A program made the position numbers and the translations under genes. The notes under the pieces were generated by a model. The model saw nothing but the letters and a program-made list of their open reading frames with translations. It ran no database searches and was not told the DNA's origin. From the sequence record PZ445405.1: 50,126 nucleotides of DNA. The stretch is one strand, 5' to 3'. This document shows positions 8,680 through 48,457 of this stretch, one piece after another (the stretch's first letter is position 1; each line of letters opens with the position of its first letter). This DNA comes from a phage.

Positions 8680-9047
8680 ACTACAACGAAATAGAATCAA
8701 TCACTCGCGCTGGAATTAACTTCTTTAGTGATGTCAATGGCGTTTATGAGATGAGCACTGGCGCTGGATATGTTGAAATCGTTAACGGCGTTGAGGTTGA
8801 GGTTCCTTCGCAGACATTCCAGCTAAAAGGCTTGGTGCGAGAAATAAAGACGCGCGATATCGATGGTGAGTTTATCCAGTTTGGCGATAAGCGCGGAATA
8901 TTCACGGCTCAGGTGGAAATTAAGCAGGGCTATCAGATTAAAGTAGATGGTGAGACTTTCGTTGTTGTTGACCCGCGCCCCGTCAAACCAACTGGTACAG
9001 TTGTTGGCTACAGGCCTATTCTTCGTAGGGTGGCTACTTATGGCTAG
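8676..9047 (+). CDS. Head closure / neck protein (putative)
   Basis: ATGA overlap with the upstream gene; position. Confidence 0.4.
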   Translation: MNYNEIESITRAGINFFSDVNGVYEMSTGAGYVEIVNGVEVEVPSQTFQLKGLVREIKTRDIDGEFIQFGDKRGIFTAQVEIKQGYQIKVDGETFVVVDPRPVKPTGTVVGYRPILRRVATYG

Positions 9048-9477: not shown

Positions 9478-9868
9478 ATTATCATTAGCCGCAAGGAAAT
9501 TCGTCGACGATTTGTTGGTAAATGAATTTCCGGTCAGATATCCAGTTGCTTGGGAGAACTGTAAGTTTACTCCTCCTGCCGACGGCTCAATCTGGCTTAA
9601 GTACGACTACACAGAAGTTGATACCGTAACCTACGGATTAAGCAGGAAGTGCAAATACTACGTAGGCATGGTGCAGATTTCAGTATTCTTAAGTCCTGGT
9701 ACTGGAATTGATAAGCCGAGACAGATTGCTAATCAATTGGCAGAATCTATCGTTGATGGTACAATGCTTGACAGCGGGACCATTTATGAGTCTGGAGTTG
9801 TTAACCCGGTTATCAAATCCAAGTCTGGGTGGTTTATCCCGGTTCGTTTTTATGTTCGTCTAGACTAA
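9467..9868 (+). CDS. Tail terminator-like protein (putative)
   Basis: GTG start with SD GAGGAGG; position immediately upstream of the major tail gene. Confidence 0.4.
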   Translation: MQYELSLAARKFVDDLLVNEFPVRYPVAWENCKFTPPADGSIWLKYDYTEVDTVTYGLSRKCKYYVGMVQISVFLSPGTGIDKPRQIANQLAESIVDGTMLDSGTIYESGVVNPVIKSKSGWFIPVRFYVRLD

Positions 9869-9883
9869 CAAAAGGAAAAATAC

Positions 9884-10540
9884 ATGGCCCATCTCAGCAA
9901 TGGCACTCAGGTCTTCGTAGAAGGCTCTAGGGGAGCTACAATTGACGTAACTGCAATTTCCAACGCAGTTACCCCTGTTTTAACTGTATCTGACGCCTCT
10001 GGCTTGGTTGTTGGTGATTACCTGCTTTTCACCTCTTCTGCTTCCACGCTTCTGGCTGACAAGCAAGTTCGAGTTACCGAAATCTCTGGCACGTCAGTAA
10101 CTGTTGAAGGTATTGATACCTCTAGCACTACAAAGTTCCCAGCCGGTTTAACTGGTGAAGTTGTTAAGATTACTTCTTGGTTCGAAGTTCCGTGCGTTCA
10201 GGATGTATCTACTGATGGCGGCGAACAGCAGTTCGTTAACTTCCAGTGCCTGTCAGATGACCGTGAACAGCAGATTCCGACTTATAAATCTGCGGTAACT
10301 AACACCTTTACCTTTGCTCATGAGTACACTAACCCGGTTTATCCGGTTCTGCGTAACTATGATGAGTCTGGTCAGGTTGTTGCGATTCGTCTGTTCGTAC
10401 CTAGAGCCAGCGAAATGCGTTTGCAGTCCGGCACTATCGCTTTCAACGACACCCCGACCATTGGCGTTAACGAAATCGAAACGGTATCCATCGCAGTATC
10501 CATTCGTGGCCGCCTGTCCTCTGTGGCAGCAGAAGTTTAA
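9884..10540 (+). CDS. Major tail protein (putative)
   Basis: 218-aa Ser/Thr/Val-rich ORF upstream of the chaperone and tape measure genes, followed by a strong terminator. Confidence 0.55.
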   Translation: MAHLSNGTQVFVEGSRGATIDVTAISNAVTPVLTVSDASGLVVGDYLLFTSSASTLLADKQVRVTEISGTSVTVEGIDTSSTTKFPAGLTGEVVKITSWFEVPCVQDVSTDGGEQQFVNFQCLSDDREQQIPTYKSAVTNTFTFAHEYTNPVYPVLRNYDESGQVVAIRLFVPRASEMRLQSGTIAFNDTPTIGVNEIETVSIAVSIRGRLSSVAAEV

Positions 10541-10547
10541 AACACCA

Positions 10548-10569
10548 ACCCTCTTCGGAGGGTTTTTTA
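10548..10569 (+). terminator. Rho-independent terminator
   Basis: ACCCTC-ttcg-GAGGGT followed by TTTTTTATT. Confidence 0.7.
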
Positions 10570-10573
10570 TTGC

Positions 10574-10650
10574 ATAGCACTTTTTGCCAAAGATCTTATT
10601 CAACTTTGCTGTATAGTTACCTCATCGAAACGAAATGAGAGATTAAAGAA
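10574..10650 (+). promoter_or_regulatory. Promoter cassette, T-rich-centre variant (ATAGCACTTTTTGCCAAA, 22 bp, TATAGT 10612-10617, leader CATCGAAACG)
   Basis: Same geometry as the canonical cassette; drives the lipoprotein ORF. Confidence 0.55.
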
Positions 10651-11037
10651 ATGAAAGCAATCATCGCAATTATGGCAACCTTGTTACTCGCTGGCTGTAA
10701 CTCAGATAAGGTAAAGACACTTAACGTTGATCTGGCATCAAACGAATGCAAGAACATCGTATACAACGCGACGGTTAACAATGAATCATTTACTCAGCTT
10801 TCATTCAAACACCCAGAGCTCAAAGATGCCGTTATGTACGTGGCGCACATTGAATGCACGAAATCTGTTAACAATTTTACCCGCGGCGTTGTAGTTGAGC
10901 ACAACACAACATTGGCAAAAGTATCAAAGCCTAGTGACGCTTCAATCGCGATGGTTTATACTAATATCTACAATTTAGAAGGTTTCGCTAAGGAAGTTGG
11001 CGAGAAGCTGGCTTACTCACGCGTTGTTATGAAATAA
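10651..11037 (+). CDS. Lipoprotein (moron inside the tail operon)
   Basis: Signal peptide with lipobox LLAGC (MKAIIAIMATLLLAGCNSD); own promoter cassette and flanking terminator. Confidence 0.6.
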   Translation: MKAIIAIMATLLLAGCNSDKVKTLNVDLASNECKNIVYNATVNNESFTQLSFKHPELKDAVMYVAHIECTKSVNNFTRGVVVEHNTTLAKVSKPSDASIAMVYTNIYNLEGFAKEVGEKLAYSRVVMK

Positions 11038-11054
11038 ATAGAGGATAAAACGAG

Positions 11055-11369
11055 ATGGCAAAGTTCAAACTTTCACTGGCGGCACTGCCAGACTTCAAGC
11101 TCCCAGTAAAATTTAAGCTGGCTAACGACCAGGATGTAGAGGTTATCTTTACAGTTAAGCATAAGAAGACTTCTGAGCTTCAGGAATTGCTTAACAAGGA
11201 AGGCTTGAGCACCAAAGAACTCATTATGGCAATTGCTTCTGATTGGGATCTGGAAGAGGAATACAACGAGGATAACGTTAATGAGTTCTCCGACCTGTTC
11301 CCGGCTTCAACTGTTGCGCTGACCACCGCTTATATGCAAGCACTTGCTGGGCAGCGAGTAAAAAACTAA
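11055..11369 (+). CDS. Tail assembly chaperone (lambda gpG-like)
   Basis: Acidic 104-aa ORF immediately upstream of the tape measure gene, ending at a slippery heptamer. Confidence 0.7.
   Translation: MAKFKLSLAALPDFKLPVKFKLANDQDVEVIFTVKHKKTSELQELLNKEGLSTKELIMAIASDWDLEEEYNEDNVNEFSDLFPASTVALTTAYMQALAGQRVKN
11360..11366 (+). other. Programmed -1 ribosomal frameshift slippery site A_AAA_AAC
   Basis: Heptamer sits 1 codon before the G stop (TAA 11367-11369); the -1 frame continues open to 11689. Confidence 0.6.
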
Positions 11370-11377
11370 AACGAGCG

Positions 11378-11689
11378 GTGTATCTACAGTACCAGTCAGA
11401 CCCAACCGATGCCGAACTGGAAGCTATTGGGATGCGCCGCTCTGATTACGAAGATGAAGAGCCTGAGGTTTTACACTTCGACGACAACATGATGAAGGCG
11501 TGGGACATTTATTGTTCAATGGCTACACAATGGAGAGTCGGAGCTAACGGAGCTACAGGCTTAGATTACAACGTGCTAAATTTCCTCTTTAGAGTGTATA
11601 ATGTTTCTGAAGAAGAATTGGTGCTCAGCGATTTACGCATCCTTGAAGCTAAGGCTCTAGAGATGATGGACAACCTGAGAAAAAAATAA
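11378..11689 (+). CDS. Tail assembly chaperone frameshift extension (gpT-like segment, expressed as G-T fusion)
   Basis: -1 frame ORF contiguous with the G gene; conserved G/GT arrangement upstream of tape measure. Confidence 0.6.
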   Translation: MYLQYQSDPTDAELEAIGMRRSDYEDEEPEVLHFDDNMMKAWDIYCSMATQWRVGANGATGLDYNVLNFLFRVYNVSEEELVLSDLRILEAKALEMMDNLRKK

Positions 11690-11712
11690 CCCGCTTCGGC
11701 GGGTTTTCTATT
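11688..11712 (+). terminator. Weak terminator / attenuator hairpin
   Basis: ACCCGC-ttcg-GCGGGT followed by TTTCTATT. Confidence 0.4.
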
Positions 11713-11724
11713 ATGGAGGCTTAG

Positions 11725-14487
11725 ATGGCAACAAATGAATTAGCCGGAATCACCCTAGCCGTAGACGTCTCGCAGGTAGACAGGGGTACGCAATCCCTAC
11801 AGAAGTTCAGGCAAGCTAACCAGCAAGCCGCTTCCGGCATTAGTGAATTCGTCAATGCCGAGCAGGTTGCAAAGACTCAAGCTAGAGAAACGGCTCGCGC
11901 ACTGGCTGAACAGCAAGCATCTTTGGCTAAATTGCAAACAGCGATTGATCCAACTGCGGCAAAGTTCCGTAAACTCCAGGAGGCAGCGGTAGGTCTTGAT
12001 AAAGCGTTCGCTGCTGGCGCAGTTCCTGACGAGGAGTTTTTCCGATTAGGTGAAGCACTTGAAACGCAGAACGCAAAACTTGCTCGTTCACGTGCGGCGC
12101 TAACTGAAGAGGGAAGAGCGGCAGCGCAGGCTGCAAAGGATAAGGCAAAAGCAAAGGCTGAAGCGGATAGATTTATTGCGTCACTACAACGACAGGCTCA
12201 AGCGGCAACATTGACGCGTGAAGAGTACTTGAAGTTGCAGGCGGCCCAACTTGGCGTTTCGGCGCAGGCCACCCCATTAATTAACCAGATTGGCACTGCA
12301 ACCCAGAGAACGGTTGAAAATCTTGGCAGGCAAGCAGCAGCATTCCAGAAATCAGGGTTAAGCGCGGGTCAATACAAAAACGCGATTTCTCAGTTACCAG
12401 CACAGATTACAGATATTGGAACATCATTGGCTGGTGGGATTCCGATTTGGCTTATTGCAATTCAGCAGGGCGGGCAGATTAAGGATGCATTTGGCGGCAT
12501 TGCTAATACTGCGAGATTCCTCCTTTCTTATCTCAACCCGCTCACGGTAGCTGCTGGAGTTCTTGGTGCTGGCTTTGCTTACGCTGCTTTAAGTATTTAT
12601 AAGAGCGAGGCGGCAATTAAGGCAGCAAGAAAGGCTGTTGAGGAAACGCTTGGCGTCACAGATGAGGCAGCTCGACAACTAAGCATTAGCATCGCCAAGA
12701 TTTCTGAGGCTTCAGGTAAGACTGCTGAAGACATTGCGAAGTCATTCGTATCAACACGTGACGGAGCGCAAGAAGCAATCCTGAAGCTGATTGATGTTGG
12801 TGTGAGTTATGATGAAGCCAGGGAGCTGGTCGAGCGTTACAAGAATGCATCAAACTTTACCCAAGTTAACGCACAAATCGAGCAGCACAGGCTTGAGGCT
12901 GCAAAGATTCAGGACAGCTGGTTCGAGAACGCGAAGGCTGTAAGCTACTATAATGATGTTGCTGTGCAAGGTCTTGTTAACTCCCCGCTAACAAACGTGG
13001 CGGCAAGAAACAGCGCGGCAATTCAGGAATTTGCGAGCCTTCTAGAAAAGGATGTGAACCAGGCTCTTATCGATGGTAATAGACACGTCGCTGAGCAAGT
13101 TGATTTAATCGGGAAGGAGTACTTAGCCCTTGATCGCGTGGCTGGTGCTGAGAAGTCACTTGCAGACGCCAGGAAGCAAGCAGCAGCAATTGCGAGAAGC
13201 GGTAACGCTGAAGCTATCGCTCAGGCGAACAGAGTAATTCAGTTGCGTCAGCGAGAACTAGATGAAGCCAAGAAGGCTGAGGCAGAGAGAAACAAGCCAG
13301 CAAAAACGAAAGCACCAAAGGAAGCCAGAGACCTTACCATCAATTATGAGTCAGGAGTCCTTGCTCTGGAGGCTCAGTTAAGGCTACTTCAGAACGTTGG
13401 AAGTCAGACGAAGGCAATCAGCACTGAGCGGAGAAAACTACTTGAGGAAGAAGCTAAGTTTGCAATCCTTGAGGAGCGCCAGGCGGCTGGAACAATAGGC
13501 AGGGAGCAAGCAAGGCTTCTTATTGAGAAGGATAAGGTTCTTCAACTAGCTAGACAGAAGGCAGAATTGGGTGACCAGATTGTTTTGCAGGAGCGAGCTA
13601 ATAAGTTAGCTGAAGATAACAGGAAGAAGATTCTTCAGATTAACAATGAGGCAAGTAACATCAGCCTGGGTGCTGGTCTATCCTCTCGGGAGCAGCAAAG
13701 ACTCAAAGAGATTCAGGCTCTTCAATCCAATCAGGAAAATGCTGGTGGTTCTCTTGAAGACGTAGATTTCCAGCAGTTACTGGAAGCAAGAAGGCAATTC
13801 TACAGGGATGAGGATGCGCTACGTGAAAACTGGCTTGCTGGTGTGAATCAATCCTTTGCCAATTGGGCTGAGAGCGCGACGGATGCCTTCTCAATTGCCG
13901 GAAGTTTAACCACAACCGTATTTGAGGGCATTACAGACCAGATTACCAACCTTGTAACCACTGGCGAAACAAACTTCAGAGAGTTTACTGTTAGCATTCT
14001 TAAGCAGATTGCTAAGATTGCGGCCCAGCTTCTTGTTGTCAAGGCAATCGAGTCCAGCTTAAGTAGCTTCGGTGGTACTGGCGGCGCTATTGGTTCAATT
14101 GCATCTGCTATAGGTTTCGCTGGTGGCGGTTACACTGGTGATGGAGGTAAGTATCAGCCGGCTGGCACAGTGCATCGTGGAGAGTTTGTATTCACAAAAG
14201 AAGCGACAAGCCGAATTGGTGTTAAGAACCTTTACGCACTAATGAAGGGTTACGCAAACGGCGGTGTTGTTGGTGGTCCTTCTGGTTATGCTAATGGAGG
14301 TTTGGTTTCTGGTGGCACTGATGTTAATGTTAGTGGTATCACTGTTAACGTAAACTCCGGGGTGGGTAGCGACCCAGAGCAAGCTAAGGCATTGCAAAGT
14401 GGAGTCAAGGCAATCGTAGCGGAAGAGATTGCTCAATCATTCCAGCAGGGTGGCAGGGCTTATCAGTACCTTCGCGGATTCAACTAA
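11725..14487 (+). CDS. Tail tape measure protein
   Basis: 920 aa, Ala/Gln/Glu-rich coiled coil, Gly-rich C-terminus; position after G/GT. Confidence 0.85.
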
Positions 14488-14517
14488 TTAATGGGGCTTC
14501 GGCCCCTAAGGATTTTT

Positions 14518-14868
14518 ATGGCTATTGAGACTTTTAAATGGTGCACGCAGATTCAGGGCGGGTCCGCATCTTTCAGTAACACGAATAATGTGCGAATCGT
14601 TAGCTTTGGCAACGGTTACGAGCAGCGCGGAACAGGAGGATATCGCAGTAACAAGCGAAGCTACCAGATGACTTACACTAACAAGGACTGGCGCGATGTG
14701 ATGGACTTTTGCTTCAATCACATAATTACCCCGTTCTTCTGGACTACACCTCAGGGTGATACTTCTATGTTTGTGATTCAGCAGGATAGCATTAGCGTTA
14801 CACCACTCAGCAAGGAAGTTCATACTGTAAACATGCAATTCGTGGAAGTATTTAGCTCAATGCGTTAA
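14518..14868 (+). CDS. Minor tail protein (lambda gpM-like)
   Basis: Position after tape measure; start at ATG 14518 with SD AAGGA, downstream of the hairpin. Confidence 0.65.
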   Translation: MAIETFKWCTQIQGGSASFSNTNNVRIVSFGNGYEQRGTGGYRSNKRSYQMTYTNKDWRDVMDFCFNHIITPFFWTTPQGDTSMFVIQQDSISVTPLSKEVHTVNMQFVEVFSSMR

Positions 14869-14872
14869 ACTA

Positions 14873-14896
14873 AGCCCCATTAGGGGCTTTTTTTTA
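14873..14896 (+). terminator. Rho-independent terminator
   Basis: AGCCCC-atta-GGGGCT followed by T8 and TTATTGGAGAAA. Confidence 0.65.
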
Positions 14897-14908
14897 TTGG
14901 AGAAATAT

Positions 14909-15664
14909 ATGTTAAGTCCAAAGTTTGAAAATCAGTTGCAAAGCCTTTTCCCTGGCGAAATTGTGACACTAATCCAGGTTGATGGCACCTCCTTTGGCGG
15001 TCTCGTTTATTCGTTCCATAATGAGAACATTTCATACACGCCAGAGGAAATCATGCTGGCCCAGATGAATGGCGATCCACTACCAGAGAAGACAATCACA
15101 TTTCGCGGAGAGGAATATGGACCTCGCCCATTCGGAATCTCTGGTATCAATATGACCTCTGACGGAAAGGCCAACAAAGTGACGCTAACAGTATCAAACG
15201 TAGACCAGCGAATTAGCGCATTGATTCGAACATACAATGGACTGGTTAGGGCTAAGGTTACTATCTGGATTACTACGCGAGACAACATCAACGAAGATGG
15301 AAGCATTGCTGATGGGGACTATCGCAGGTTCGTTTACTTCATTGAGAGACCAAAGCAGGTTGATTACAAAACGGCATCATTTGAGCTTAGCTCACCTATG
15401 GATATGGATGGAATTTACATTCCTGCGAGACTTGTTCAGTCTGTTTGCTATTTTGCCTCCAGGGGATGGTATCGAAGTGGTAATGGGTGTTCATATGCTG
15501 GTAACAGATACTTTAACAAGGATGATGAGCCGGTGGCAGACCCTTCATTAGACTTCTGTGCGGGAACTGTTAACAGCTGCAAGCTTAGATTCGGTGAGAA
15601 TAATCAGTTGGATTTTGGCGGTTGCGCGGCGGCAAGCCTTCAGGCAAAAGCGAATCAAAGCTAA
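14909..15664 (+). CDS. Minor tail protein (lambda gpL-like) with C-terminal Cys cluster
   Basis: C-terminal cysteines (CYFASRGW..GCSYAG..FCAGTVNSC) as in the lambda L iron-sulfur motif; position. Confidence 0.75.
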   Translation: MLSPKFENQLQSLFPGEIVTLIQVDGTSFGGLVYSFHNENISYTPEEIMLAQMNGDPLPEKTITFRGEEYGPRPFGISGINMTSDGKANKVTLTVSNVDQRISALIRTYNGLVRAKVTIWITTRDNINEDGSIADGDYRRFVYFIERPKQVDYKTASFELSSPMDMDGIYIPARLVQSVCYFASRGWYRSGNGCSYAGNRYFNKDDEPVADPSLDFCAGTVNSCKLRFGENNQLDFGGCAAASLQAKANQS

Positions 15665-15738
15665 ATAGCACGAATTGCTAAACACCAACGCGACGGATGG
15701 CGTATAGTTACTTCATCGAAACGAGAGGAGATAAATAA
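15665..15738 (+). promoter_or_regulatory. Canonical promoter cassette (box 15665-15682, TATAGT 15703-15708, leader CATCGAAACGAGAGGAG)
   Basis: Near-identical to the cassette at 537-611; TTGCTA to TATAGT spacing 22 bp. Confidence 0.6.
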
Positions 15739-16056
15739 ATGAAAGCTAAATTTATTGCAAAATCGGAATGGTACACTGGTGAGTACGAATTTACCACTGG
15801 AGAGGATTACGAACTTAGTCACCAAGGCGGCAACTTCTATTCAACAATAGACAATAACGGTCTTTTGGCTTACTTTGAAAATGGTCGATACTATGAATTT
15901 GAGATCCTCAAAAATGAATCAAAAGAGAAGGAGATGACTTACAGAATGAATGGGGATGTGGTTACTGAATCATTCTTTTATGACAGGCTAATGGAGGCTG
16001 AGGCACTTAAGTCCAGAGGGGTTTCTGTATTTATAGATTTTGAGGTTAGTTTTTAA
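15739..16056 (+). CDS. Hypothetical small acidic Tyr/Gly-rich protein (cassette-driven moron)
   Basis: Motif TGEYEFTTGEDYEL similar to ORFs at 612 and 34351. Confidence 0.45.
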   Translation: MKAKFIAKSEWYTGEYEFTTGEDYELSHQGGNFYSTIDNNGLLAYFENGRYYEFEILKNESKEKEMTYRMNGDVVTESFFYDRLMEAEALKSRGVSVFIDFEVSF

Positions 16057-16079
16057 TAATCGAAATTGGTGTTAAACTA

Positions 16080-16106
16080 GGTCAATCGATAGATTGGCCT
16101 TTTTTA
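16080..16106 (+). terminator. Rho-independent terminator
   Basis: GGTCAATC-gata-GATTGGCC followed by TTTTTTATTGGAGAAAA. Confidence 0.55.
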
Positions 16107-16117
16107 TTGGAGAAAAC

Positions 16118-16876
16118 ATGTTAACACCCAAAGTCAAGCTGCAAATCTTCCAGCACGCAAAAGAAGCCTACCCGCATGAGTGCTGTGGAGTTGTTACGCA
16201 GAAGGGCAGGGCGCAGAAGTATCACAGAATCACAAACTCAAGCAAAGACCCTGAAAACGAGTTCATTCTTGATTCAAATGAGTATGCAAATATCACCTTT
16301 AACCTCGCAGATAATGAGTCGATTGTGTACGTAGCTCACTCTCACACAGGCGACGGCGCCACAACAAGACCTAGCCCAGCGGACATTTGCAGCTGCAATG
16401 AATGCGAGATTCCTTATGTTATCGTAAGCATTCCTGAGGGTGACATGAGAATCCTTGAGCCATCAACCATGCCACTGATTGGTCGCCCGTGGGGTCTGGG
16501 TAGCTTTGACTGCTGGGAGTTGGTGATGGCATTTCACAAGAAATACGGCGTAAAACTGAATGACTACCGCGTCAATTACCCGTGGTGGGAGAAACGGTAC
16601 AATGAAAATATCTATGATGACAACTGGATTAAGGAAGGATTTGAGCTAGTAAAAACTTCAGATATTCCTATTGGCTCCATGATTATGATGCAGGTGCAAA
16701 GCGAGGTGACAAACCACGCCGGAATCTACATTGGCAACAACAGATTTATTCATCACCTTTATGGTAAAATGAGTTCCGTTGATATCTACTCCGATTACTG
16801 GCGAGAGCGCACAGTGCGAATTGTTCGCCATAAGGATTTACCAGAGGATGTAATTTATGACCCAGAAACTGATTGA
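16118..16876 (+). CDS. Tail assembly protein (lambda gpK-like; JAMM metalloprotease + NlpC/P60 domains)
   Basis: JAMM motif HSHTGDGATTRPSPAD and NlpC/P60-type Cys (DCWELV) plus His residues. Confidence 0.8.
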   Translation: MLTPKVKLQIFQHAKEAYPHECCGVVTQKGRAQKYHRITNSSKDPENEFILDSNEYANITFNLADNESIVYVAHSHTGDGATTRPSPADICSCNECEIPYVIVSIPEGDMRILEPSTMPLIGRPWGLGSFDCWELVMAFHKKYGVKLNDYRVNYPWWEKRYNENIYDDNWIKEGFELVKTSDIPIGSMIMMQVQSEVTNHAGIYIGNNRFIHHLYGKMSSVDIYSDYWRERTVRIVRHKDLPEDVIYDPETD

Positions 16877-17429
16877 TATTAAGCTAGGCCTGTCTCTAGG
16901 CCGTAAGTTTGGAAAGATTCACCAGATGGCAGTGAATAGTGTTCCCGAGGCGATGAGAGCGCTATGCTCACAGATTCCAGCATTCAAAGAATTCATGAAC
17001 AGTCATGTTGGTCAGAACACAAGGTACGCAGTGTTCGTTGATGGCAAAAATGTGAACGAGCATCGAATCTCTGATTTTAGTGCCGTTCAGGAGATACGCA
17101 TCTTACCAATCCCACAAGGTCGCAAGTCCGGTGGGTTGTTTCAGACAATTTTAGGTGCTGCGCTTATCACGGTTGGTATCTTTACCGGGCAGATTTATCT
17201 TGTTGGCGCTGGTGTGTCTTTAGCGGCGGGTGGTATTGCTCAGTTACTCTCACCTCAAGCGACTGGATTGAAGACCCAGAACAACCAAACAAGCAACCGA
17301 GCATCATACGCATTCGGCTCAGCAGTAAACACAGTAGCTGCTGGATATCCAGTTTGCTTGCCATACGGCTATAGAACGGTTGGCGGCTCGGTATTTTCGG
17401 CCGGTTCATATGCAGAGGACAATGCTTAA
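16857..17429 (+). CDS. Tail assembly protein (lambda gpI-like)
   Basis: Clear similarity to lambda I (RALCSQIPAFKEF.., ILPIPQGRKSGGLFQTILGAALI). Confidence 0.8.
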   Translation: MTQKLIDIKLGLSLGRKFGKIHQMAVNSVPEAMRALCSQIPAFKEFMNSHVGQNTRYAVFVDGKNVNEHRISDFSAVQEIRILPIPQGRKSGGLFQTILGAALITVGIFTGQIYLVGAGVSLAAGGIAQLLSPQATGLKTQNNQTSNRASYAFGSAVNTVAAGYPVCLPYGYRTVGGSVFSAGSYAEDNA

Positions 17430-17437
17430 ATACCATA

Positions 17438-17459
17438 CCCGCCTAGTGCGGGTTTTTTA
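17438..17459 (+). terminator. Rho-independent terminator
   Basis: CCCGC-ctagt-GCGGG followed by TTTTTTATTT. Confidence 0.65.
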
Positions 17460-17509
17460 TTTAGTGTAGAATGGCACAAATGATCAAAACAAACATGAGG
17501 CTTTGTGAT

Positions 17510-20500
17510 ATGGCTGAAGAGATTAAGATTTATGGTGCCAAGGGTGGTAGCCAGAAGCAGCATCAACCAGTAGAGCAGGAAGATAACCTGATTTCGTTAA
17601 ACAAGGTTAAGGTTCTTTTGGCGGTTGCTGACGGAGAGGTGGATCCAAACTTCTCAATGAAGGATTTATACCTTGCTGACGTTCCAGTACAAAATCAGAA
17701 TGGCACCTACAACTATGAAGGAGTTCGAGCTGAGTTCCGCTCTGGTACGCAGTATCAGGATTACATCGCTGGGCTTGACGGTGCTAACTCAGAGATTCAG
17801 GCTTCACGTGAAATCACGAACGACACCCCGTACATTATTGCGGTTAACAATACTCAGCTATCAGCAATTAGAGTTAAGCTATTTTGGCCTCGGCTGGTTA
17901 AGCAAGAAAGCAACGGAGACCTGAACGGAACTACTTGCGAGTACGCAATTGACCTTTCTGTTAATGGTGGCGCTTATCAGGAATACACTCGCGGAGTTGC
18001 AAACGGGAAGACAACTACGGGTTACGACCGCAGTATTCGTGTAAACCTTCCAGCTGAATTTGATAGCGCACTGGTTCGAATTCGCAAGATTACAGCAGAT
18101 TCAACAAGTAGCACGCTGGTTAATGGAATGCAGATTACAACCTATCAGGAAGTAATTGACGCTAAATTCCGCTACCCGCTTACTGCTCTGGTTTATGTTG
18201 AGTTCGGATCTGACCTGTTCCCTAACGGCATCCCGACAATCTCTATAAAGAAGCGCTGGAAGTTGATTCAAGTCCCGACAAACTACGACCCGGAGACCAG
18301 GACTTACAGCGGCACATGGAATGGCCTGTTCAAAATGGCGTGGTCAAACAACCCGGCCTGGGTTCTCTATGACTTAGTGACAAATCGCCGCTACGGCCTT
18401 GACCAGCGAGAGTTGGGTGTAGAGATTGATAAGTGGGGGCTATATGAAGCTGCGCAATTCTGTGACCAGATGGTGCCGGATGGTAAGGGTGGTATGGAGC
18501 CGCGCTACCTGTGCGATATGGTTGTGCAGAATAAAGTTGAGGCCTACACGCTAATTCGTGACATCTGCTCAATCTTCCGTGGACTGACTTTCTATGATGG
18601 CGAAAAGATTGGTATCGTGGTTGATAAGCCTCGAAATACATCTTACATCTTCACGAATGATAACGTTGTAAACGGATTATTCAGCCGAACTTTTGCCAGT
18701 GATAAGAGCCTTTACACTACGGCAAACGTTCAGTTCGATGATGTGGAAAACAACTATCAGCAAGATGTAGAGCCGGTATTCGAGTTGGAGGCTACTCGCA
18801 GATTTGGATTCAATCCAGTCGACCTTACGGCAATCGGATGTACGCGAAGAAGTGAAGCAAACAGGCGCGGCAGATGGCTCCTGAAAACCAACCTGAGAAG
18901 CGAAACTATCAGCTTCACTACCGGGTTGGAAGGCATGATTCCGATGATTGGCGAGGTGATTGCGGTTAATGATGCCGCATGGTCTAGCAACTATCAGCTG
19001 AACCTTTCCGGTCGTATTGAGTCAGTTCAGGGATTGCAGGTTTTTACACCGTTCAAAGTTGACGCTGCGCCGGGCGACAGAATTCTTCTAAACAAGCCTG
19101 ACGGAAGCCCAGAGGCAAGAACTATTGCCAGCGTTTCGGAAGATGGTAGAACAATCAACCTTAACACTGCTTTCAGCTTTGTGGCTCAACCTGATACTGT
19201 TTTTGCAATTGATAAGGACAATCTAGCGCTTCAGCAATATGTTGTGACAGGGATTCAAAAAGCAGACTCTGACGGTTCGGATTCTTTCCAGTATACGATT
19301 ACCGCAGTAGAGTATGACCCGAACAAGTACGACGAGATTGACTACGGCGTTAACATTGCTGACCGTCCAACTTCAATTGTTGAACCTGACAGATTGTCGC
19401 CGCCTGAGAATTTAACAGTATCAAGCTACAGCAAGATTGTTCAGGGCTTATCAGTTGAGACGATGGTTATCGGATGGGATAAGGCGCCATACGCTAAAAC
19501 TTACAACGTTCAATGGAGGAAAGAAAATGGCAACTGGATTAACGTACCCAGAACAGCAAGCACAGAGGTTGATATCGAGGGTATTTACGCAGGAATCTAC
19601 GACGTTAGGATTCGCAGCGTATCAGATACTGAAAACGTGTCCGCCTGGTCTGGCATTGTAACCAAAAGCCTCACCGGAAAGATTGGTAAGCCACCAAAGC
19701 TGCAGGTTATAACGGCGAGTGATGATGAGGTTTTCGGAATTCGAGTTAAATGGGGGTTTGCTGACGGATCTGGTGATACTGCTTACACTGAGCTTCAGCA
19801 AGTGGCTGATAATGGTGATGGTACATACAACCCAGACAGTGCTAGCCTGTTAACTTTGGTCCCATATCCTCAGTATGAATACTGGCACACGCCGATTCAA
19901 CCCGGCAATGTTATATGGTATCGCGCAAGGATTATAGATAGGATTGGTAATACATCTGATTGGACGGACTTCGTCAGAGGGATGAGTACTGATGACGCTC
20001 AGAAGATCGCTGAATATATCAAGGTTGATATCGAGCAGTCTGAAGGATTTAAATACCTACAGCAGAATGCAATTGATAAAAACCAAGACATTCAGAATCA
20101 AGCTGAGGCAATAATCGAGAACGCACTAGCAAATGACTCAGATGTAAGGCGCCAGTCTGTTAAGAATGGGAAATTTACAGCTTCAATAACCGAAAGTCTT
20201 CAGTTGATTGCTGACGAGCAGCAAGCCAGGGTAACTCAGATATCTCAGCTTGAGGCGGATTTTGACGGAAGGGTTAATTCTTTAAACACTGAACTAAGAG
20301 AGGTAATAACAACTGGTGATAGCGCTCTATCAAGATCAATTGATGATTTAAGGGTTGAGATTGACGAGAACATATCATCACAAATAACAAACATAAACAC
20401 GGCTTTAGTAACAGAAGCAGAAGCAAGAGCCACGGCTGACACAGCTTTGTCTGCAAGGCTTGGTCAGAACGAGGCGGCACTAAACCAGAAGCTGGATGCT

Positions 20501-24299: not shown

Positions 24300-24640
24300 C
24301 ACAGTTACACGTAACCGATGTAACTCGATGTATACAATCTCGTCCGCGGAAAATGGTATACGCCCTGTTACGCCTGGTTACGCTATAGTTACATTAAAAT
24401 ATCTATATATATCAACCTTTTACTCTTATTATTATTATTATATATATTACTATGTATATCATGTAACTACTTCTATGGAGTGTTCCGGTTGTAATTTTAA
24501 TATCATGTGGATTTATACAGTATCTAACAATCAGCATAGCAACGCACCCTCCTTGAAGAATGGTATACACGATATACACGCTGGTTACATTGAGCTATAG
24601 CTGGTCTGGGGTGCCAAAAAGCGTAACTAGTGGCAGTGCC
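24300..24640. repeat. Iteron plus microsatellite control region A (paralog of region B at 42866-43200)
   Basis: CGATGTA x2 at 10-bp spacing (24316, 24326), GTTACGC x2 at 10-bp spacing (24367, 24377), (TA)n 24394-24402, (TTA)5 24426-24440, palindrome AGCTATAGCT 24593-24602; same motif order as region B. Confidence 0.7.
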
Positions 24641-24961: not shown

Positions 24962-25927
24962 ATGAGCTTTAAAGTTTTTACGCGAGAGGAACTAAGCAAC
25001 GAGGCTTATCATAACGAGACTGAGCATATATCAGGCAGTTCAATTGTCGAGATTATCCAGGGCTCTCCGGCTAAGTGGAAGTTTAAACAGCGTAATAATG
25101 ATAGCAAGGCTCTTAAGTTCGGAACGCTGAGTCACACATACATCCTAGAGGGTGACGTGTTTGATAAAGAATACCTGAGAGCAACTGACCTTGACTCAAT
25201 TGAAGGATTGATTACCAGCCAAACCGGTTTGGCTGCGGCACTTAAGAAAGTTGGTGTGGCTGGCACGTCAGGGAAGGGGTATGGCGAGCTTGTAGAGATG
25301 ATGTATCGCTCTGGTGAGGATTGGCCTGTTAAATGGCTAATTGAGCAGAAGGAGAGCGCTCAGGCGCTTGTGGAGGGTAAGGAGTTAGTTAGCGCAGCGG
25401 ACTACGACAAAGTGGTGGCGATGCGTGAGGTTCTTTGCAATATTCCGGCATACGATAAGATTGTTAATAGTGAGACGGCGCAGAAGGAGTTATCAATCTT
25501 CGGTGAGATTCTAGGCGTTGGCGTTAAGATTCGAATCGACCATGTTGACGTTATTGATGGAGTCGTTCGGATCACAGACTATAAAACGACAGCGGACGCA
25601 AGCCCTGAGGGATTTGGCAAATCGGCATTCTCGCACGGGTACCTTGCAAAAATGTCGCTTCAGCGCGATCTGTTTGTGAAGGCATTCAACGAGAAGCGAA
25701 AGGTTGTTGTGGGATTGTTAGCACAGGAGAAGGTAGAGCCATACTTACCAATGCTTTACACCTTGACGGACGAGCAGTTACGAATTGGTAGGTTGCAGTA
25801 TCTTGAGGCGTTGGCCACTTATAAGAAGTGCAAGGAGCTAGATATCTGGCCGGGGTACTCGAATGGGATTACAGAGCAAGAGCTACTAGTTCCTGAGTGG
25901 GCACTGAAACAATACAAAGAAATATAA
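24962..25927 (+). CDS. PD-(D/E)XK-family nuclease, putative recombination exonuclease
   Basis: Motifs IDHVDVIDG and ITDYKT (D..D.K core); genomic context with Erf and SSB. Confidence 0.5.
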   Translation: MSFKVFTREELSNEAYHNETEHISGSSIVEIIQGSPAKWKFKQRNNDSKALKFGTLSHTYILEGDVFDKEYLRATDLDSIEGLITSQTGLAAALKKVGVAGTSGKGYGELVEMMYRSGEDWPVKWLIEQKESAQALVEGKELVSAADYDKVVAMREVLCNIPAYDKIVNSETAQKELSIFGEILGVGVKIRIDHVDVIDGVVRITDYKTTADASPEGFGKSAFSHGYLAKMSLQRDLFVKAFNEKRKVVVGLLAQEKVEPYLPMLYTLTDEQLRIGRLQYLEALATYKKCKELDIWPGYSNGITEQELLVPEWALKQYKEI

Positions 25928-26002
25928 ATAGCACGAATTGCTAAAGACAAAATTAACGAGTGGGGTATGATTGCCCCATCAACAACGAACGAGGTTAAAA
26001 TT
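25928..26002 (+). promoter_or_regulatory. Canonical promoter cassette (box 25928-25945, TATGAT 25966-25971, leader CATCAACAACGAACGAGG)
   Basis: Box overlaps the stop of the upstream gene; 22-bp spacing conserved. Confidence 0.55.
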
Positions 26003-33856: not shown

Positions 33857-34272
33857 ACATAACAGATAAAGAAGATTACATTGAGTTTTACCCGGGCCCG
33901 GTTAAGTATTGCCCTAAAGAGGATGACGAGCAAATCTTTTGCTCTGATTGGGTTAAGTATCATTACCCTCAGATTGTTTACTGGCACACGGTTAATGAAT
34001 CGATGAAGACCATTGGACAGGCAAGAAAAGACCAGGCCAAAGGTTTGCTTAAGGGGGTTTCGGACTGCTTATTCCTGATACCTGAATCACTTCGTGGTAA
34101 ATACCCTTTTGGAGCCATAGAGCTAAAAAGGGCCGGGAAGACGCAGGCGAGTCCAGTCAGCGACGAACAGAAGTCCTTCCTTAAGAGCGTCAGAGAATCG
34201 GGCGGCTTCGGGGCTGTAGCTTACGGACGTGAGGGTTTTCTTGCGGCATTCAAAGAAATGATTTCAAAATAG
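33853..34272 (+). CDS. VRR-NUC domain nuclease (putative)
   Basis: Motif GVSDCLFLIPESLRGKYPFGAIELKR (D..E.K core); ATGA coupling to the helicase gene. Confidence 0.55.
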   Translation: MNITDKEDYIEFYPGPVKYCPKEDDEQIFCSDWVKYHYPQIVYWHTVNESMKTIGQARKDQAKGLLKGVSDCLFLIPESLRGKYPFGAIELKRAGKTQASPVSDEQKSFLKSVRESGGFGAVAYGREGFLAAFKEMISK

Positions 34273-34350
34273 CACGAATTGCTAAAGACGTTTCGGTGAG
34301 TTGGTGTATTATCTATTCATCGAAACGAAACGCACAAAGAGAGAAACAAA
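34269..34350 (+). promoter_or_regulatory. Canonical promoter cassette (box 34269-34286, TATTAT 34307-34312, leader CATCGAAACGAAACG)
   Basis: Box contains the TAG stop of the upstream gene; 22-bp spacing. Confidence 0.55.
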
Positions 34351-34641
34351 ATGGCTACTATCTATACTGGTAAATTCTACGAATCACGCAAAACTGGTTA
34401 TGAGTATGAATTAGTAATAACCCCAGAAGGTTATGTACTTGATGATGGTGAAGGGTACGCATTCGAAGTTAGCCCGACTTACAAAGATGATTTAGAAACT
34501 GTTAAAAACGCATTTGGCGAAAAATTTGATGTTATTGATGATGGTGATGGCTACGCATTCGAAGTTAGCCCAACCTACAAAGATGATTTAGAAACTGTTA
34601 AAAACGCATTTGGCGAAAAAATTGATGAGGTATCAGAGTAA
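34351..34641 (+). CDS. Hypothetical acidic protein with internal 32-aa tandem duplication
   Basis: Two 96-bp direct repeats (34441-34536 and 34537-34632) encoding DDGEGYAFEVSPTYKDDLETVKNAFGEK twice. Confidence 0.5.
   Translation: MATIYTGKFYESRKTGYEYELVITPEGYVLDDGEGYAFEVSPTYKDDLETVKNAFGEKFDVIDDGDGYAFEVSPTYKDDLETVKNAFGEKIDEVSE
34441..34632 (+). repeat. Tandem 96-bp in-frame duplication (2 units, about 93% identical)
   Basis: Direct comparison of the two units shows only about 7 substitutions. Confidence 0.8.
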
Positions 34642-42699: not shown

Positions 42700-42800
42700 A
42701 TTTATGGATTGTTGCGGATATTGCAATGATTCCCATGATTATTGCACATATAGCAATATTGCTTCAGATGCAATGATGTTTTTGATTGTTGCGAAATGAG
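42700..42800. repeat. Cluster of short direct repeats (GATTGTTGCG x2, TGCAATGAT x2, ATTGC motifs) in ORF-free DNA
   Basis: Repeated 9-10-mers read directly; no credible ORF. Confidence 0.5.
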
Positions 42801-42865
42801 CAATAAAGTAGTGAGTGAGTGAATGAAAGATGGATGGACTACCATACAAGTTGATTTTGATTCTG

Positions 42866-43200
42866 CTAATCCATTTTCACGCTTACACGTAACGCCCGTA
42901 GCGCGATGTAAGCCAACGCCTATCGTTACGCGAGTTACGCGCAGCTACGCCTAGACTTACACTATAAGTGCCTAATATATATATATATCTTCTTTCTATT
43001 ATTATTATTATTATTATTATTATTGTATGTAAGTCATGTAACGGGGTTTCCGGCGATATCTATATGTTTTTTCCTATCAGTTATAGCCTTGGCTATAATT
43101 TAAGGTATGGAGTGGGTGTTTTGGGGCCATTTGCCTCGTTACACGCACGACACGCCACTTACATTAAGCTATAGCTGGGCTAGCATACCATTTCGCGTAA
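42866..43200. repeat. Iteron plus microsatellite control region B (paralog of region A)
   Basis: ACGTAAC 42887, CGATGTA 42904, G(T/C)TACGC x3 at 42925/42934/42944, (AT)7 42975-42988, (TAT)9 42997-43023, palindrome AGCTATAGCT 43167-43176. Confidence 0.7.
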
Positions 43201-45732: not shown

Positions 45733-45866
45733 TTTACATCCACACGTACTACACTGGCAAGTTTAACAGTGTTAAGCACATTAGTGTTCACGATACGTAC
45801 GATAGCGCAAAGGCTCAGTGGTTGGTTCTTGGCGGCGATATTAATTCATATAGAGTTGCTGAATAG
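45729..45866 (+). CDS. Hypothetical small protein (45 aa)
   Basis: ATGA-coupled; its TAG stop lies in the next cassette box. Confidence 0.25.
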   Translation: MIYIHTYYTGKFNSVKHISVHDTYDSAKAQWLVLGGDINSYRVAE

Positions 45867-45936
45867 CACTAATTGATAAAACAGCATTGGGGTAATTTGC
45901 TATAGTTACCCCATCGAAACGAGCGAGGTCAAAGAG
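45863..45936 (+). promoter_or_regulatory. Promoter cassette (box ATAGCACTAATTGATAAA, 22 bp, TATAGT 45901-45906, leader CATCGAAACGAGCGAGG)
   Basis: Exact 22-bp spacing. Confidence 0.55.
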
Positions 45937-46293: not shown

Positions 46294-46433
46294 GCTTCAC
46301 TGAATATGTTATAGCATGTGAACGACTGGTCTTTGATATGAAAACTTTCCACTGGTTCATAATTAAAGACTTAATAAAGCCTTACAAGCAGGGCGTTACC
46401 CCAGAGGCGTTTGTTAAGTCATTCTACAAATAG
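46290..46433 (+). CDS. Hypothetical small protein (47 aa)
   Basis: Stop TAG lies inside the next cassette box. Confidence 0.3.
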   Translation: MSFTEYVIACERLVFDMKTFHWFIIKDLIKPYKQGVTPEAFVKSFYK

Positions 46434-46505
46434 CACGAATTGCTAAACGAAGTCGCCACGGATGGCATATAATTACCCTATCAATACAAAGAGAGAGATT
46501 GAGAA
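46430..46505 (+). promoter_or_regulatory. Canonical promoter cassette (box 46430-46447, TATAAT 46468-46473)
   Basis: Hairpin GCCA-cgga-TGGC in the 22-bp spacer, as in the cassette at 537. Confidence 0.55.
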
Positions 46506-46745
46506 ATGTTCGGACTAGAGGATTCATACTTCAACGCAGTAAAGCGACAGGCTGACAAGCTTAACGATGAGTACAGCAAGCTGACACCAAAGCAGCGAAA
46601 AGACAACCATGTTGTTGCCGCACTAATCACGCAAGTCTGGGGTCCTGTATCGACGCTAATTAGTCGAGATAAATTTACCTGGATAGCAGGGTACAGGCGC
46701 GGTCGTGTTGGTCATGACGAGAATGGGAATAGCCTTTATGAGTGA
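46506..46745 (+). CDS. Hypothetical protein (79 aa)
   Basis: ORF from the six-frame track after the cassette. Confidence 0.4.
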   Translation: MFGLEDSYFNAVKRQADKLNDEYSKLTPKQRKDNHVVAALITQVWGPVSTLISRDKFTWIAGYRRGRVGHDENGNSLYE

Positions 46746-46802
46746 GTTAACAATCTGGTTTATCTCAGGTCTGATTACTTGGGCTTACTTTATGGTGGCG
46801 GC

Positions 46803-47039
46803 ATGAGAACATTGAGACAGATTTTACACGGCTGCAAGAAGCATCATTACACCTACTTTCGTGATATTAAATGGTTCGAGGATGCTTGTTGTATAGATGG
46901 TTGCAAAACGAAGCTAGTATGCAAGAAATGCCATCATGTTGAGAATAGCAAGGTAGATATGATGATTTGCCGCAGCGCACTTGATTACATTGCGTATGAA
47001 AAGCTCAAGACGCTCAAAAAACTAACAACTAAACCGTAA
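46803..47039 (+). CDS. Cys/His-rich small protein (putative zinc-binding)
   Basis: Cluster HGCKKHH..CCIDGCKTKLVCKKCHH; start at ATG 46803. Confidence 0.4.
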   Translation: MRTLRQILHGCKKHHYTYFRDIKWFEDACCIDGCKTKLVCKKCHHVENSKVDMMICRSALDYIAYEKLKTLKKLTTKP

Positions 47040-47381
47040 TTGTTAAAAAGAGCTTGCATCACTGACCGGAATTATCTAATATTAACCACGTAGACAAAAG
47101 AGGCCACCGAGTGGCAACGGCGCGCGGAGCGCACTACACGGCAAGTCCGCTGCTCATTAAGTAGCGTATGCGGCGCATCTGGTCCATGAGGATAAGGCGT
47201 AAACCTCAATCAACTTCCCAGTATGGGCTTTATTCCCTTAGGGACTTGTAAGACCTAGCGCAAATAGGCCGACATGGTCCAAGTCGAAAAAACTGACCAG
47301 ACCTGAGCATGTCACTAAACGAGCTTTCTGTAAATCGGTCGTTTCAGGCGACCCCGGAGCCGTAACCGGGACTCATTCTAA

Positions 47382-47459
47382 GCTCTGCTAGCTCAATTGG
47401 ACAGCAGCAACGACCTTCTAAGTCGTAGGTTACTGGTTCGAATCCAGTGCGGAGCGCCA
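47382..47459 (+). tRNA. tRNA-Arg (anticodon TCT)
   Basis: Cloverleaf readable by eye: acceptor GCTCTGC/GCGGAGC (one G-U pair), anticodon stem ACGAC/GTCGT with loop CTTCTAA, T-arm ACTGG-TTCGAAT-CCAGT, encoded CCA; D-stem has one mismatch. Confidence 0.7.
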
Positions 47460-47486
47460 AATTAAACCAATGATCCTGGGGGATTT

Positions 47487-47669
47487 ATGAAAACTGTAAC
47501 ATTCATCGTAAAAGATTGCGGGACTGGCACCGTTCAGAAGTTTAACGCGAAATTAACCTACAACAAAGGCGACAGCAAAGAAGTTAAAGGCTCTCTGGGC
47601 GGAGTAATGGTTGAGGCTCGACTCCCAATTATCTACCCTGATGACGAGCGCCGCAATGTGGGACGTTAA
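47487..47669 (+). CDS. Hypothetical protein (60 aa)
   Basis: ORF immediately downstream of the tRNA. Confidence 0.3.
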   Translation: MKTVTFIVKDCGTGTVQKFNAKLTYNKGDSKEVKGSLGGVMVEARLPIIYPDDERRNVGR

Positions 47670-47838
47670 ACTTTCAATTAGATTAATGGGGCGCAGTTGC
47701 AAGAATTGCACTCAAGATTATATCGCGTCAGTTGCCGCAATCAGCGCTGAGGATGCGGTAGCGAAAGTAAAAGAGTTGTCAGGCGCTGACCCTGATACTC
47801 ACAAATTCCTGGTAGCTTACGTTCGTGAGCGAAAGTAA
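47611..47838 (+). CDS. Hypothetical protein (start ambiguous: 47611, 47656 or 47686)
   Basis: ORF overlapping the previous one in another frame. Confidence 0.3.
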   Translation: MRLDSQLSTLMTSAAMWDVKLSIRLMGRSCKNCTQDYIASVAAISAEDAVAKVKELSGADPDTHKFLVAYVRERK

Positions 47839-47882: not shown

Positions 47883-47907
47883 AGCCCTCGCTTGAGGGCT
47901 TTTTTTC
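47883..47907 (+). terminator. Rho-independent terminator
   Basis: AGCCCTC-gctt-GAGGGCT followed by TTTTTTT. Confidence 0.65.
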
Positions 47908-47917: not shown

Positions 47918-47926
47918 TGGTATAAT
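47918..47926 (+). promoter_or_regulatory. Extended -10 promoter element TGGTATAAT upstream of the small terminase gene
   Basis: TG motif one base upstream of TATAAT; no clear -35. Confidence 0.35.
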
Positions 47927-47950: not shown

Positions 47951-48457
47951 ATGAGCAAAGCAGCATTAAAGATGGGCGAGGGAAATTTCAAGGCGCTCTA
48001 CAACAAGAAGTATGGCGACATTGCTATGGTGGCAATCAACCGCAAGTACACGCCTGAGGAGGTATTTGACTTTGCCGTTCGATACTTCTCATGGGCCGAG
48101 AGTGAGGCAATAAAAGCAATTGAGACGGCAGCATTTCAAGGCGTGGTTAGTGAAAGCCTGGTACATAAACCTCGAGTGTTCACATTAACCGGGCTGGCGC
48201 TCTTCATGGGTGTTAATATCAATAGATTCGCTCGCTGGCGTACTGAGGCTGGATACTCTGATGTGATGGAATTTATTGATAACGTAATTTACGAGCAGAA
48301 ATACCAACTTGGCGTTGCGGGTATCATCAACTCTACCATTGTCGGTAAAGAGCTAGGCATTGATAAGCCGCAGGAAATCACTATTAGCAACAACTCCACC
48401 GCTAACGACGTTGATAGCATGAAGGAAGCGCTGGAGTCTGTGATTAGTAAGCTGTAA
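47951..48457 (+). CDS. Terminase small subunit (putative)
   Basis: 168-aa ORF immediately upstream of the large terminase gene; SD AGGAGG. Confidence 0.55.
   Translation: MSKAALKMGEGNFKALYNKKYGDIAMVAINRKYTPEEVFDFAVRYFSWAESEAIKAIETAAFQGVVSESLVHKPRVFTLTGLALFMGVNINRFARWRTEAGYSDVMEFIDNVIYEQKYQLGVAGIINSTIVGKELGIDKPQEITISNNSTANDVDSMKEALESVISKL

Follow-up and report, generated by a model that had tools for sequence, protein, structure and literature searches.

A conserved hairpin leader ahead of the tRNA slot and terminase genes of T1-like coliphages, a candidate regulatory RNA

Background

Phage record PZ445405.1, a stretch of 50,126 nucleotides which is called the window throughout this work, carries a transfer RNA (tRNA) gene of the arginine type, tRNA-Arg(TCT), a short distance ahead of the terminase genes. 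The tRNA gene is preceded by a gap (47040-47381) devoid of plus-strand open reading frames (ORFs), which begins right after the ORF ending with its stop at 47039. What does such a gap contain? The first-pass annotation of the window described it as ORF-free, GC-rich and structured, and proposed that it might encode a co-transcribed small RNA, degenerate tRNA remnants or the pac site. The data reported here indicate that the locus is very probably organized as a short transcription unit, composed of a promoter, an untranslated leader of about 292 nt, the tRNA-Arg, two ORFs of 60 amino acids (aa) and a terminator, located just upstream of the terminase genes. That the gap provides this unit with promoter and 5' leader, and that the leader acts in cis as a regulatory RNA, is the explanation we favor, and is considered reasonably probable; the cis-regulatory mechanism itself can be put forward only tentatively. 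T1 is a classical coliphage, the transcriptional control of which is poorly understood, and a homologous leader is found in T1.

The gap and its predicted promoter

By sequence similarity, the region around the gap matches Rtp-like coliphages of the subfamily Braunvirinae, family Drexlerviridae. The nearest record is JulesPiccard (91% over 46700-47700, 95.5% over the gap alone). The gap is matched by 88 phage records; among the matches listed, only BEK6 has an annotated feature under the gap match. The absence of ORFs holds for the plus strand and, on both strands, for ORFs of at least 50 aa, 47040-47486 being the longest stretch of the window free of them. It does not hold for two short, unconserved ORFs of the minus strand, one of 45 aa (47072-47209) and one of 38 aa (47344-47460), the latter overlapping the tRNA. 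The enrichment in GC is mild, as 47040-47381 has a GC content of 0.50, with a peak of 0.54, against 0.448 in the window.

A predicted sigma-70-type promoter is located at the upstream end of the gap (Table 1), with an A-tract (47045-47049) upstream of the -35 hexamer. With a regular expression, the same layout has been identified in over 40 loci, as TTGACx or TTGCAT followed by 17-18 nt, TAnnnT, 6-8 nt (mostly 7) and GTA(G/A)AC. Hexamers vary between loci although the promoter geometry stays, and better hexamers are found in distant relatives, such as ES (TTGACA-17-TACATT), ESCO41 (TTGACA-17-TATCTT) and T1 (TTGACC-18-TAGTAT). Since this layout is conserved at a fixed distance from GTA(G/A)AC, transcription may be placed to start at about 47089-47090.

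Leader hairpins in close relatives

From the predicted start to the tRNA the leader is composed of short hairpins. Alignment of 28 distinct versions of the gap from close relatives (alignment A2) distinguishes three zones. The first 135 bp or so are nearly invariant, the last 50 bp or so are conserved, and the middle is made of modules either present or absent. Leader lengths in A2 accordingly range from about 205 to 410 bp, the 342 bp of the window being the second longest. H6 is present in 23 of the 28 sequences, H4 in 8, H5a in 2, and the 64-nt module in 3 (window, JulesPiccard and Rtp). The terminal module is duplicated in JulesPiccard, in A110b and in one metagenomic contig.

The folding energy of the leader is unremarkable (z-scores of +0.20 for the plus and -1.02 for the minus strand, and of -0.01 to -1.37 for four sub-segments), and the term structured can therefore be justified only by looking at the relatives. 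Here the evidence is positive. Unguided RNAalifold analysis of A2 returned H1, H3 and both terminal hairpins, with compensatory changes at 11 of 22 pairs. A ten-hairpin structure applied to A2 is paired in 94.8% of cells, versus 27-40% when partners are slid; its covariation score is 0.177, versus 0.016-0.035 for slid partners, and was reached by none of 500 shuffles. Four of the five H1 pairs are compensatory (GCCAC/GUGGC, CCAUC/GAUGG, CUAGC/GCUAG). Either terminal hairpin has two compensatory pairs, the first occurring as GGUCG/CGACC or GGCUG/CAGCC, the second as CCCGG/CCGGG or GCUGG/CCAGC. H3 has one, a G-C pair turned into A-U in 5 sequences, and several of its pairs alternate among U-G, C-G and U-A. 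Changes on both sides of the stem are missing in A2 for the optional hairpins H4, H5a and H6, and H5b pairs poorly (76% of cells). The hairpin CCCGG-AGCCGTAA-CCGGG (47353-47370), which the first-pass annotation had singled out, is real, and turns out to be the most widely conserved of the region.

Several pairs in A2 are mostly U-G, and their equivalents on the minus strand are C-A mismatches. Because compensatory changes keep the hairpins, and G-U pairs fit one strand, an RNA is indicated rather than a site in duplex DNA, and the hairpins are kept by selection as plus-strand RNA. A minus-strand terminator flagged at H1 by the terminator scan was discarded, as leftward genes do not run up to it, its stems span 4-5 bp, and the G-U pairs are compatible with the plus strand alone.

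The same data bear on the notion that the gap may be a pac site, or some other site working at the DNA level, for example an origin of replication or a signal for single-strand initiation. The gap is the largest non-coding one in the window, the small terminase gene follows about 570 bp downstream, and hairpins in single-stranded DNA could covary too. Yet, the spacing between the predicted promoter and the first of the conserved elements is fixed, and no repeats of the kind bound by terminases were found. The T1 record, which we take to begin at the pac end, opens with the terminal repeat (1-2800, 2.8 kb), and the homologous leader is 7.6 kb away. Similarly, the SU57 leader is about 5.3 kb from the genome start. 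In both phages pac has been placed at the genome start (PMC7718038). Judged by homology, and by the covarying plus-strand hairpins, a DNA-level site is very improbable, and the pac proposal of the first-pass annotation finds no support. No terminal redundancy is found within the window.

Conservation across the family

Beyond the close relatives, the leader was searched with a covariance model, R1, which describes the array GUAGAC..GAG-H1-AACG-H2 and was built from 17 diverse sequences. In 54 loci around small-terminase homologues taken from IMG/VR, R1 finds one strong match in nearly every locus, on the terminase strand, 600-900 nt upstream of terS, and lineages outside the building set are among those matched. 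In the complete window R1 identifies only 47090-47134 (55.8 bits, E 3.9e-11; runner-up 12.8 bits), and in T1 the sole match at E<=1 is 7624-7673. The homologous promoter and leader of T1 span 7590-7754, between ST58 and ST57, with no tRNA. In the R1-based alignment (A7), which is fitted to the model, compensatory changes involve 5 of 5 pairs in H1 and 4 of 5 in H2, with three or four pair types each. The family-wide covariation score is 0.529, versus 0.014-0.088 for slid partners, and no shuffle out of 500 reached it.

Sequences which remain unpaired, namely GUAGAC..GAG, AACG and CCGUAA, are more constant than the stems. The last hairpin is the clearest example, as about 20 distinct stems have been found across the family, always complementary, and the loop keeps ..CCGUAA. 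Hairpins with a CGUAA loop are not otherwise enriched in the window beyond chance (4 found, 3.9 expected). H3 is kept in Braunvirinae, Rao1 and ES, and has not been seen in T1-type leaders. A CAUUC-like motif in the linker is kept in relatives, tRNA-less ones included. The leader occurs with no tRNA in T1, in GaoY1-9D and in contig L080. The transcription unit, its promoter layout and both leader elements are kept throughout Drexlerviridae. The analysis defines an RNA element which is single-copy, family-wide, tRNA-independent and supported by covariation, and whose position relative to the downstream terminase genes is fixed.

The hairpins could have a merely passive role, protecting an untranslated RNA of this length against Rho and RNases, or helping the processing of the tRNA precursor; conservation would then reflect the promoter and a general structure only. 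The free gain and loss of hairpin modules in the middle, the optional hairpins lacking covariation and the unremarkable folding energy are in line with this notion. In contrast, AACG, the CCGUAA loop and GUAGAC..GAG are kept across subfamilies next to stems which have wholly diverged, and T1-type phages retain the leader with no tRNA to process. A passive leader seems hence improbable.

Of the families in Rfam 15, the tRNA alone passes the gathering threshold anywhere in the window, and nothing is matched in 47040-47381 at E<=10. Text searches of the Drexlerviridae literature for non-coding RNA or mapped start sites returned nothing relevant, and 'no sRNA' is what the MSK paper (PMC8421802) reports. 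When IMG/VR and metagenomes were scanned for exact patterns, most of the matches were due to chance or came from genomes already known. The leader is undescribed in Rfam, in the searchable literature and in nearly all the GenBank records listed.

Table 1. Features of the unit and of the adjoining terminase genes (window coordinates)
Feature	Position	Strand	Basis and remarks
Sigma-70-type promoter	-35 TTGCAT 47054-47059; -10 TAATAT 47077-47082	+	predicted; 17-bp spacer; layout conserved in relatives
Promoter-proximal element	47090-47134	+	5' GUAGACAAAAGAG, H1, AACG (47116-47119), H2; covariance model R1, covariation
H1	47103-47107 pairs 47111-47115	+	
H2	47120-47123 pairs 47129-47132	+	
H3	47147-47173	+	outer CCGC/GCGG, inner UGCU/AGCG, loop CAUUAAGU; unguided RNAalifold
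Variable middle	47178-47336	+	modules present or absent in relatives; hairpins predicted
H4	47188-47207	+	GAGG..CCUC; predicted
H5a	47217-47227	+	predicted
H5b	47234-47244	+	predicted
H6	47254-47268	+	CCUA-GCGCAAA-UAGG; predicted
64-nt module	47269-47332	+	predicted
Terminal element, first hairpin	47337-47353	+	GGUCG-UUUCAGG-CGACC; covariation
Terminal element, second hairpin	47353-47370	+	CCCGG-AGCCGUAA-CCGGG; covariation
Linker, last hairpin to tRNA	47371-47381	+	ACUCAUUCUAA; read from sequences
tRNA-Arg, anticodon TCT, encoded CCA	47382-47459	+	ARAGORN; Rfam tRNA
Two overlapping 60-aa ORFs	47487-47669, 47656-47838	+	ORF list; co-oriented with tRNA
Intrinsic terminator	47883-47907	+	AGCCCTC-GCTT-GAGGGCT + T7; terminator scan; closes the unit
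Extended -10	47918-47926	+	TGGTATAAT; sequence
Small terminase gene	47951-48457	+	PHROG 606, Pfam GP3_package
Large terminase gene	48556 to window end		open-ended ORF

The tRNA and the tRNA slot

The tRNA proposed by the first-pass annotation is accepted by both ARAGORN, whose sole call over the entire window is tRNA-Arg(tct), and Rfam, the full-length RF00005 model matching 47382-47456 with 56.9 bits against a gathering score of 29. The CCA is encoded at 47457-47459. The gene shares about 80% identity with the tRNA-Arg genes of E. coli. It resides at the same position in all close relatives, with 91-96% identity in the closest, and is the same gene, with no difference, as the tRNA-Arg(UCU) of Rtp-like phages. 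The tRNA is already known, since it is annotated in many records (JulesPiccard, ACG-M12 and SU57 among them). In E. coli K-12, AGA is used roughly 2 and AGG roughly 1 time per 1000 codons. In the window, AGA (12.9 per 1000) and AGG (9.7 per 1000) jointly make up 46% of the Arg codons, as counted in 32 long ORFs (10,969 codons). A role of the tRNA in supplying decoding of these host-rare codons fits the counts, and phage tRNAs have been read in the same way in the study of SU57 (PMC7718038).

In relatives, the slot which follows the terminal hairpin and precedes the first ORF hosts zero to six tRNAs. It is empty in the T1 types, in GaoY1-9D, in contig L080 and in the terminator-bearing subgroup described below. 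Arg-TCT is found in Braunvirinae and ESCO41, Arg-CCT in Rao1, ES, L093 and L094, Trp plus Arg-CCT in L090, Arg-CCT plus Val in L091, and six tRNAs in L115. Because the contents differ between relatives, tRNAs must have been inserted repeatedly at one site behind the leader. A single insertion slot explains the patchy distribution of tRNAs among Drexlerviridae, and provides them with a promoter.

In light of a slot carrying up to six tRNAs, the gap could be thought to hold remnants of degenerate tRNA genes, as the first-pass annotation suggested. The terminal hairpin pair of T1 loosely recalls, by eye, adjacent D and anticodon arms. Moreover, in ESCO41 (L058) a tRNA-like sequence not called by ARAGORN is found at about 1452-1548, downstream of tRNA-Arg; it features a 7-bp acceptor (CTCGGCG/CGCCGAG), a TTCGATT T-loop arm and a long extra arm. 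However, the slot is downstream of the conserved elements of the leader, which tRNA-less phages possess too, and the lengths and sequences of the loops are unlike those of tRNA arms. The Rfam tRNA model, run over 46900-47600 at E<=10, matches tRNA-Arg only. ARAGORN in relaxed mode calls nothing on the leader plus strand, and yields only spurious calls on the opposite strand, overlapping or abutting the real tRNA. That the gap derives from tRNA genes is barely credible, and this proposal has to be dropped. A start similar to that of the ESCO41 sequence occurs in CEB_EC3a (GCGTTGCTAAT); the window has no such sequence after its tRNA.

Annotation of the tRNA is uneven. ARAGORN detects the gene, present yet unannotated, in Rtp (NC_007603, L002, 1793-1869) and in DTL (NC_047893, L061, 814-891), two phages said to lack this tRNA in a published comparison (PMC8421802). 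A coding sequence has been called across the tRNA in DTL ('ORF 26'), and on the minus strand in BEK6 (L009, 805-918). The tRNA is thus missing from some reference records, and spurious ORFs run across it in others.

Possible functions of the leader

Among the three proposals of the first-pass annotation, a co-transcribed non-tRNA RNA upstream of the tRNA is the one that agrees with the data, as the predicted promoter (47054-47082) is conserved in position and the hairpins downstream covary on the plus strand. According to the explanation favored here, host RNA polymerase would start at about 47089, cleavage by RNase P at 47382 would free the leader from the tRNA, and the tRNA would provide decoding of AGA and AGG, heavily used by the phage. 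The leader would act in cis during transcription, as an attenuator or an antiterminator-type RNA for the unit. The leader is retained despite tRNAs separating it from the ORFs, and for this reason a co-transcriptional, or trans-acting, role is likelier than control of the ribosome-binding site or stabilization of mRNA.

A regulatory leader is further favored by a subgroup of loci (L105, L106, L108, L109, L116, L120, L121 and L126-L129), in which the leader is about 110 nt long and the last hairpin has a GC-rich stem of 7-9 bp followed by a U-rich tract with 2-8 U. This hairpin, to judge from its sequence, has the shape of an intrinsic terminator, and is followed at once by the site where ribosomes would bind for the first ORF. 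A shared antiterminator pairing was sought by eye in the subgroup; a suggestive repeat was noticed in L109 and is absent from L126.

Several points weigh against a cis-acting regulatory leader. The hexamers of the window promoter are weak, with 7 of 12 matches to consensus by eye (3/6 plus 4/6), and the consensus scan did not list the promoter; both the start at 47089-47090 and the RNA species are predictions. The folding energy is no better than that of shuffled sequences. Among close relatives the independent compensatory events appear to be few, and three of the H1 pairs may have been flipped in one swap; in A7, being model-fitted, pairing is somewhat inflated. The architecture of the subgroup equally resembles that of a stand-alone small-RNA gene. 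In the window the last hairpin has a stem of 5 bp, followed by GACUCAUUCUAA, and no GC-rich stem plus U-run is found between the promoter and the first gene; the terminal hairpin of T1 and Braunvirinae similarly has 5 bp and no U-run. Attenuation in the style of the subgroup would therefore be impossible in these phages. No regulator protein or ligand has been identified, and the neighboring proteins match families of unknown function. Lastly, late expression can be accounted for with no control of read-through, because the late region has its own repeat or promoter elements after the terminators (PMC11447400).

The main rival to the cis-acting leader is a gene for a stable small RNA acting in trans, which we regard as possible and, on balance, unlikely. 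The 3' end of such RNA would be set by RNase P at the tRNA in the window, and by the intrinsic terminator in the subgroup; a host or phage partner, RNA or protein, would be contacted through the conserved single-stranded 13-mer at the 5' end or through the CCGUAA loop. A strong, conserved promoter of its own, the tolerance to tRNAs inserted behind the leader, and the stricter conservation of the unpaired GUAGAC..GAG, AACG and CCGUAA relative to the stems all suit a small RNA. The subgroup version, about 110 nt ending in a stem and a U-run, is reminiscent of a classical small-RNA gene; in terms of the layout of Hfq-type small RNAs, the subgroup fits the architecture, and the window has the predicted promoter with no terminator found before the tRNA. 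Yet, the complement of the 5' 13-mer is not found beyond chance in either the window or T1, where the 13-mer matches only itself, and an in-genome target was therefore rejected. A search of 5,426 E. coli genomes returned no match to the leader, hence there is no obvious mimicry, and a host origin was rejected as well. Members lacking both tRNA and terminator, such as T1, have nothing to define a 3' end before the ORF. Moreover, the terminator of the subgroup must be leaky or regulated, since there is no room for the next gene to have its own promoter.

Whether acting in cis or in trans, the leader could represent a previously undescribed class of regulatory RNAs common to all T1-like phages, a possibility which is at present doubtful. 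In cis, the two-hairpin element and the hairpin with the CCGUAA loop would act on the polymerase, or bind a phage or host factor, and control read-through where the early region gives way to the packaging genes. In trans, the leader would be released as a trans-acting RNA. In either form, the tRNA slot would exploit the strong promoter of the leader.

Known systems offer partial parallels. In T4, a tRNA cluster is co-transcribed with small stable RNAs, species 1 and 2. The likeness, drawn by description only, is that of a structured non-tRNA RNA lying on a tRNA precursor, from which processing of the tRNA would release it. Unlike species 1 and 2, the leader precedes the tRNA slot, begins at the 5' end of the transcript and is kept in the tRNA-less T1. 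Other parallels are found in the put RNAs of HK022, by which the polymerase transcribing them is rendered insensitive to terminators, and in the 6S leader of lambda pR' with tR'. In the lambdoid systems a strong host-type promoter is likewise followed immediately by a conserved untranslated RNA containing hairpins, ahead of packaging genes and in a region punctuated by terminators, and the subgroup leader ends with a terminator-like hairpin before the first gene. Unlike in those systems, no Q- or N-like protein has been identified among the neighboring proteins, and the terminal hairpin in the window lacks the U-run. Similarity to put was rejected, as R1 run over the whole HK022 genome with filters off gave 7 bits at best (E 2.5). 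A lambda-type nut was rejected too: a candidate boxA (CGCTCTTA-like) is found in H3 (GCTCATTAAG, 47152-47161), by eye, in Braunvirinae and close relatives only, and is absent from T1, ESCO41 and other leaders. In bacterial tRNA operons, leaders and spacers, including the regulatory 3'ETS of glyW-cysT-leuZ, are tRNA-flanking RNAs removed by RNase P or RNase E. The phage leader is akin to them in being an untranslated RNA that flanks a tRNA and could have a role of its own. It differs in being, with about 292 nt, much longer than usual for tRNA leaders, in carrying tRNA-independent motifs and in having no similarity to E. coli.

Two other candidates were discarded by eye. GUG or AUG triplets occur in the 3' arm of H1 after GAGG, and could start a leader peptide; the frame varies between variants, and T1 has none. 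GGA triplets, as expected in a CsrA sponge, are 5 in about 290 nt, which is the chance level.

Neighboring genes and other features of the window

Neither the sequence nor the terminator scan reveals a terminator-like site between the tRNA and the 60-aa ORFs; the terminator after the ORFs (47883-47907) is a strong one. These ORFs match PHROG 16862 and 2919, families of unknown function, and the same pair is annotated in JulesPiccard. The first looks, by eye, homologous to T1 ST57.

The structural gene block, on the plus strand of 1-20000, is punctuated by about ten strong intrinsic terminators (positions 1014, 5362, 7905, 8242, 10547, 11688, 14872, 16079, 17437). Similar punctuation occurs in the T1 annotation, and several terminators are then followed by a repeat of about 72 nt. 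This motif has seven plus-strand copies in the window (535-606, 10572-10643, 15663-15734, 25926-25997, 34267-34338, 45861-45932, 46428-46499). It begins with AAATAGCACGAATTGCTAAA, a palindrome of the type TAGCA-N5-TGCTA, features TATAGTTACC about 20 nt further on, and ends with a Shine-Dalgarno-like GAGGAG. The promoter of the leader is not of this class. The motif matches a 21-nt direct repeat of phage TLS (aaATAGCACnnnTTGnTAAAA), the function of which was left undecided (PMC11447400); only three intergenic promoter-like sites, and many terminators, were reported in the same genome study (PMC11447400).

Two records which are Rtp-like at the locus, 86-89% identical, bear other host names, namely MG065688 ('Campylobacter phage A110b', UNVERIFIED, L007) and PP134917 ('Pseudomonas phage PsgS01F'). 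These non-Escherichia labels look doubtful.

Two AT-rich tracts of low complexity, (TA)n followed by (TTA)n, are found 18.6 kb apart (24398-24448 and 42974-43024). The second is near an ORF-free stretch (42777-42967) that is among the larger ones of the window, and is ahead of a block of small plus-strand ORFs. Judging from T1 and SU57, this general area is where pac and the end of the genome might lie. Finally, two tandem copies of a 96-nt sequence, 93% identical, occur at 34433-34624, apparently within a coding region.

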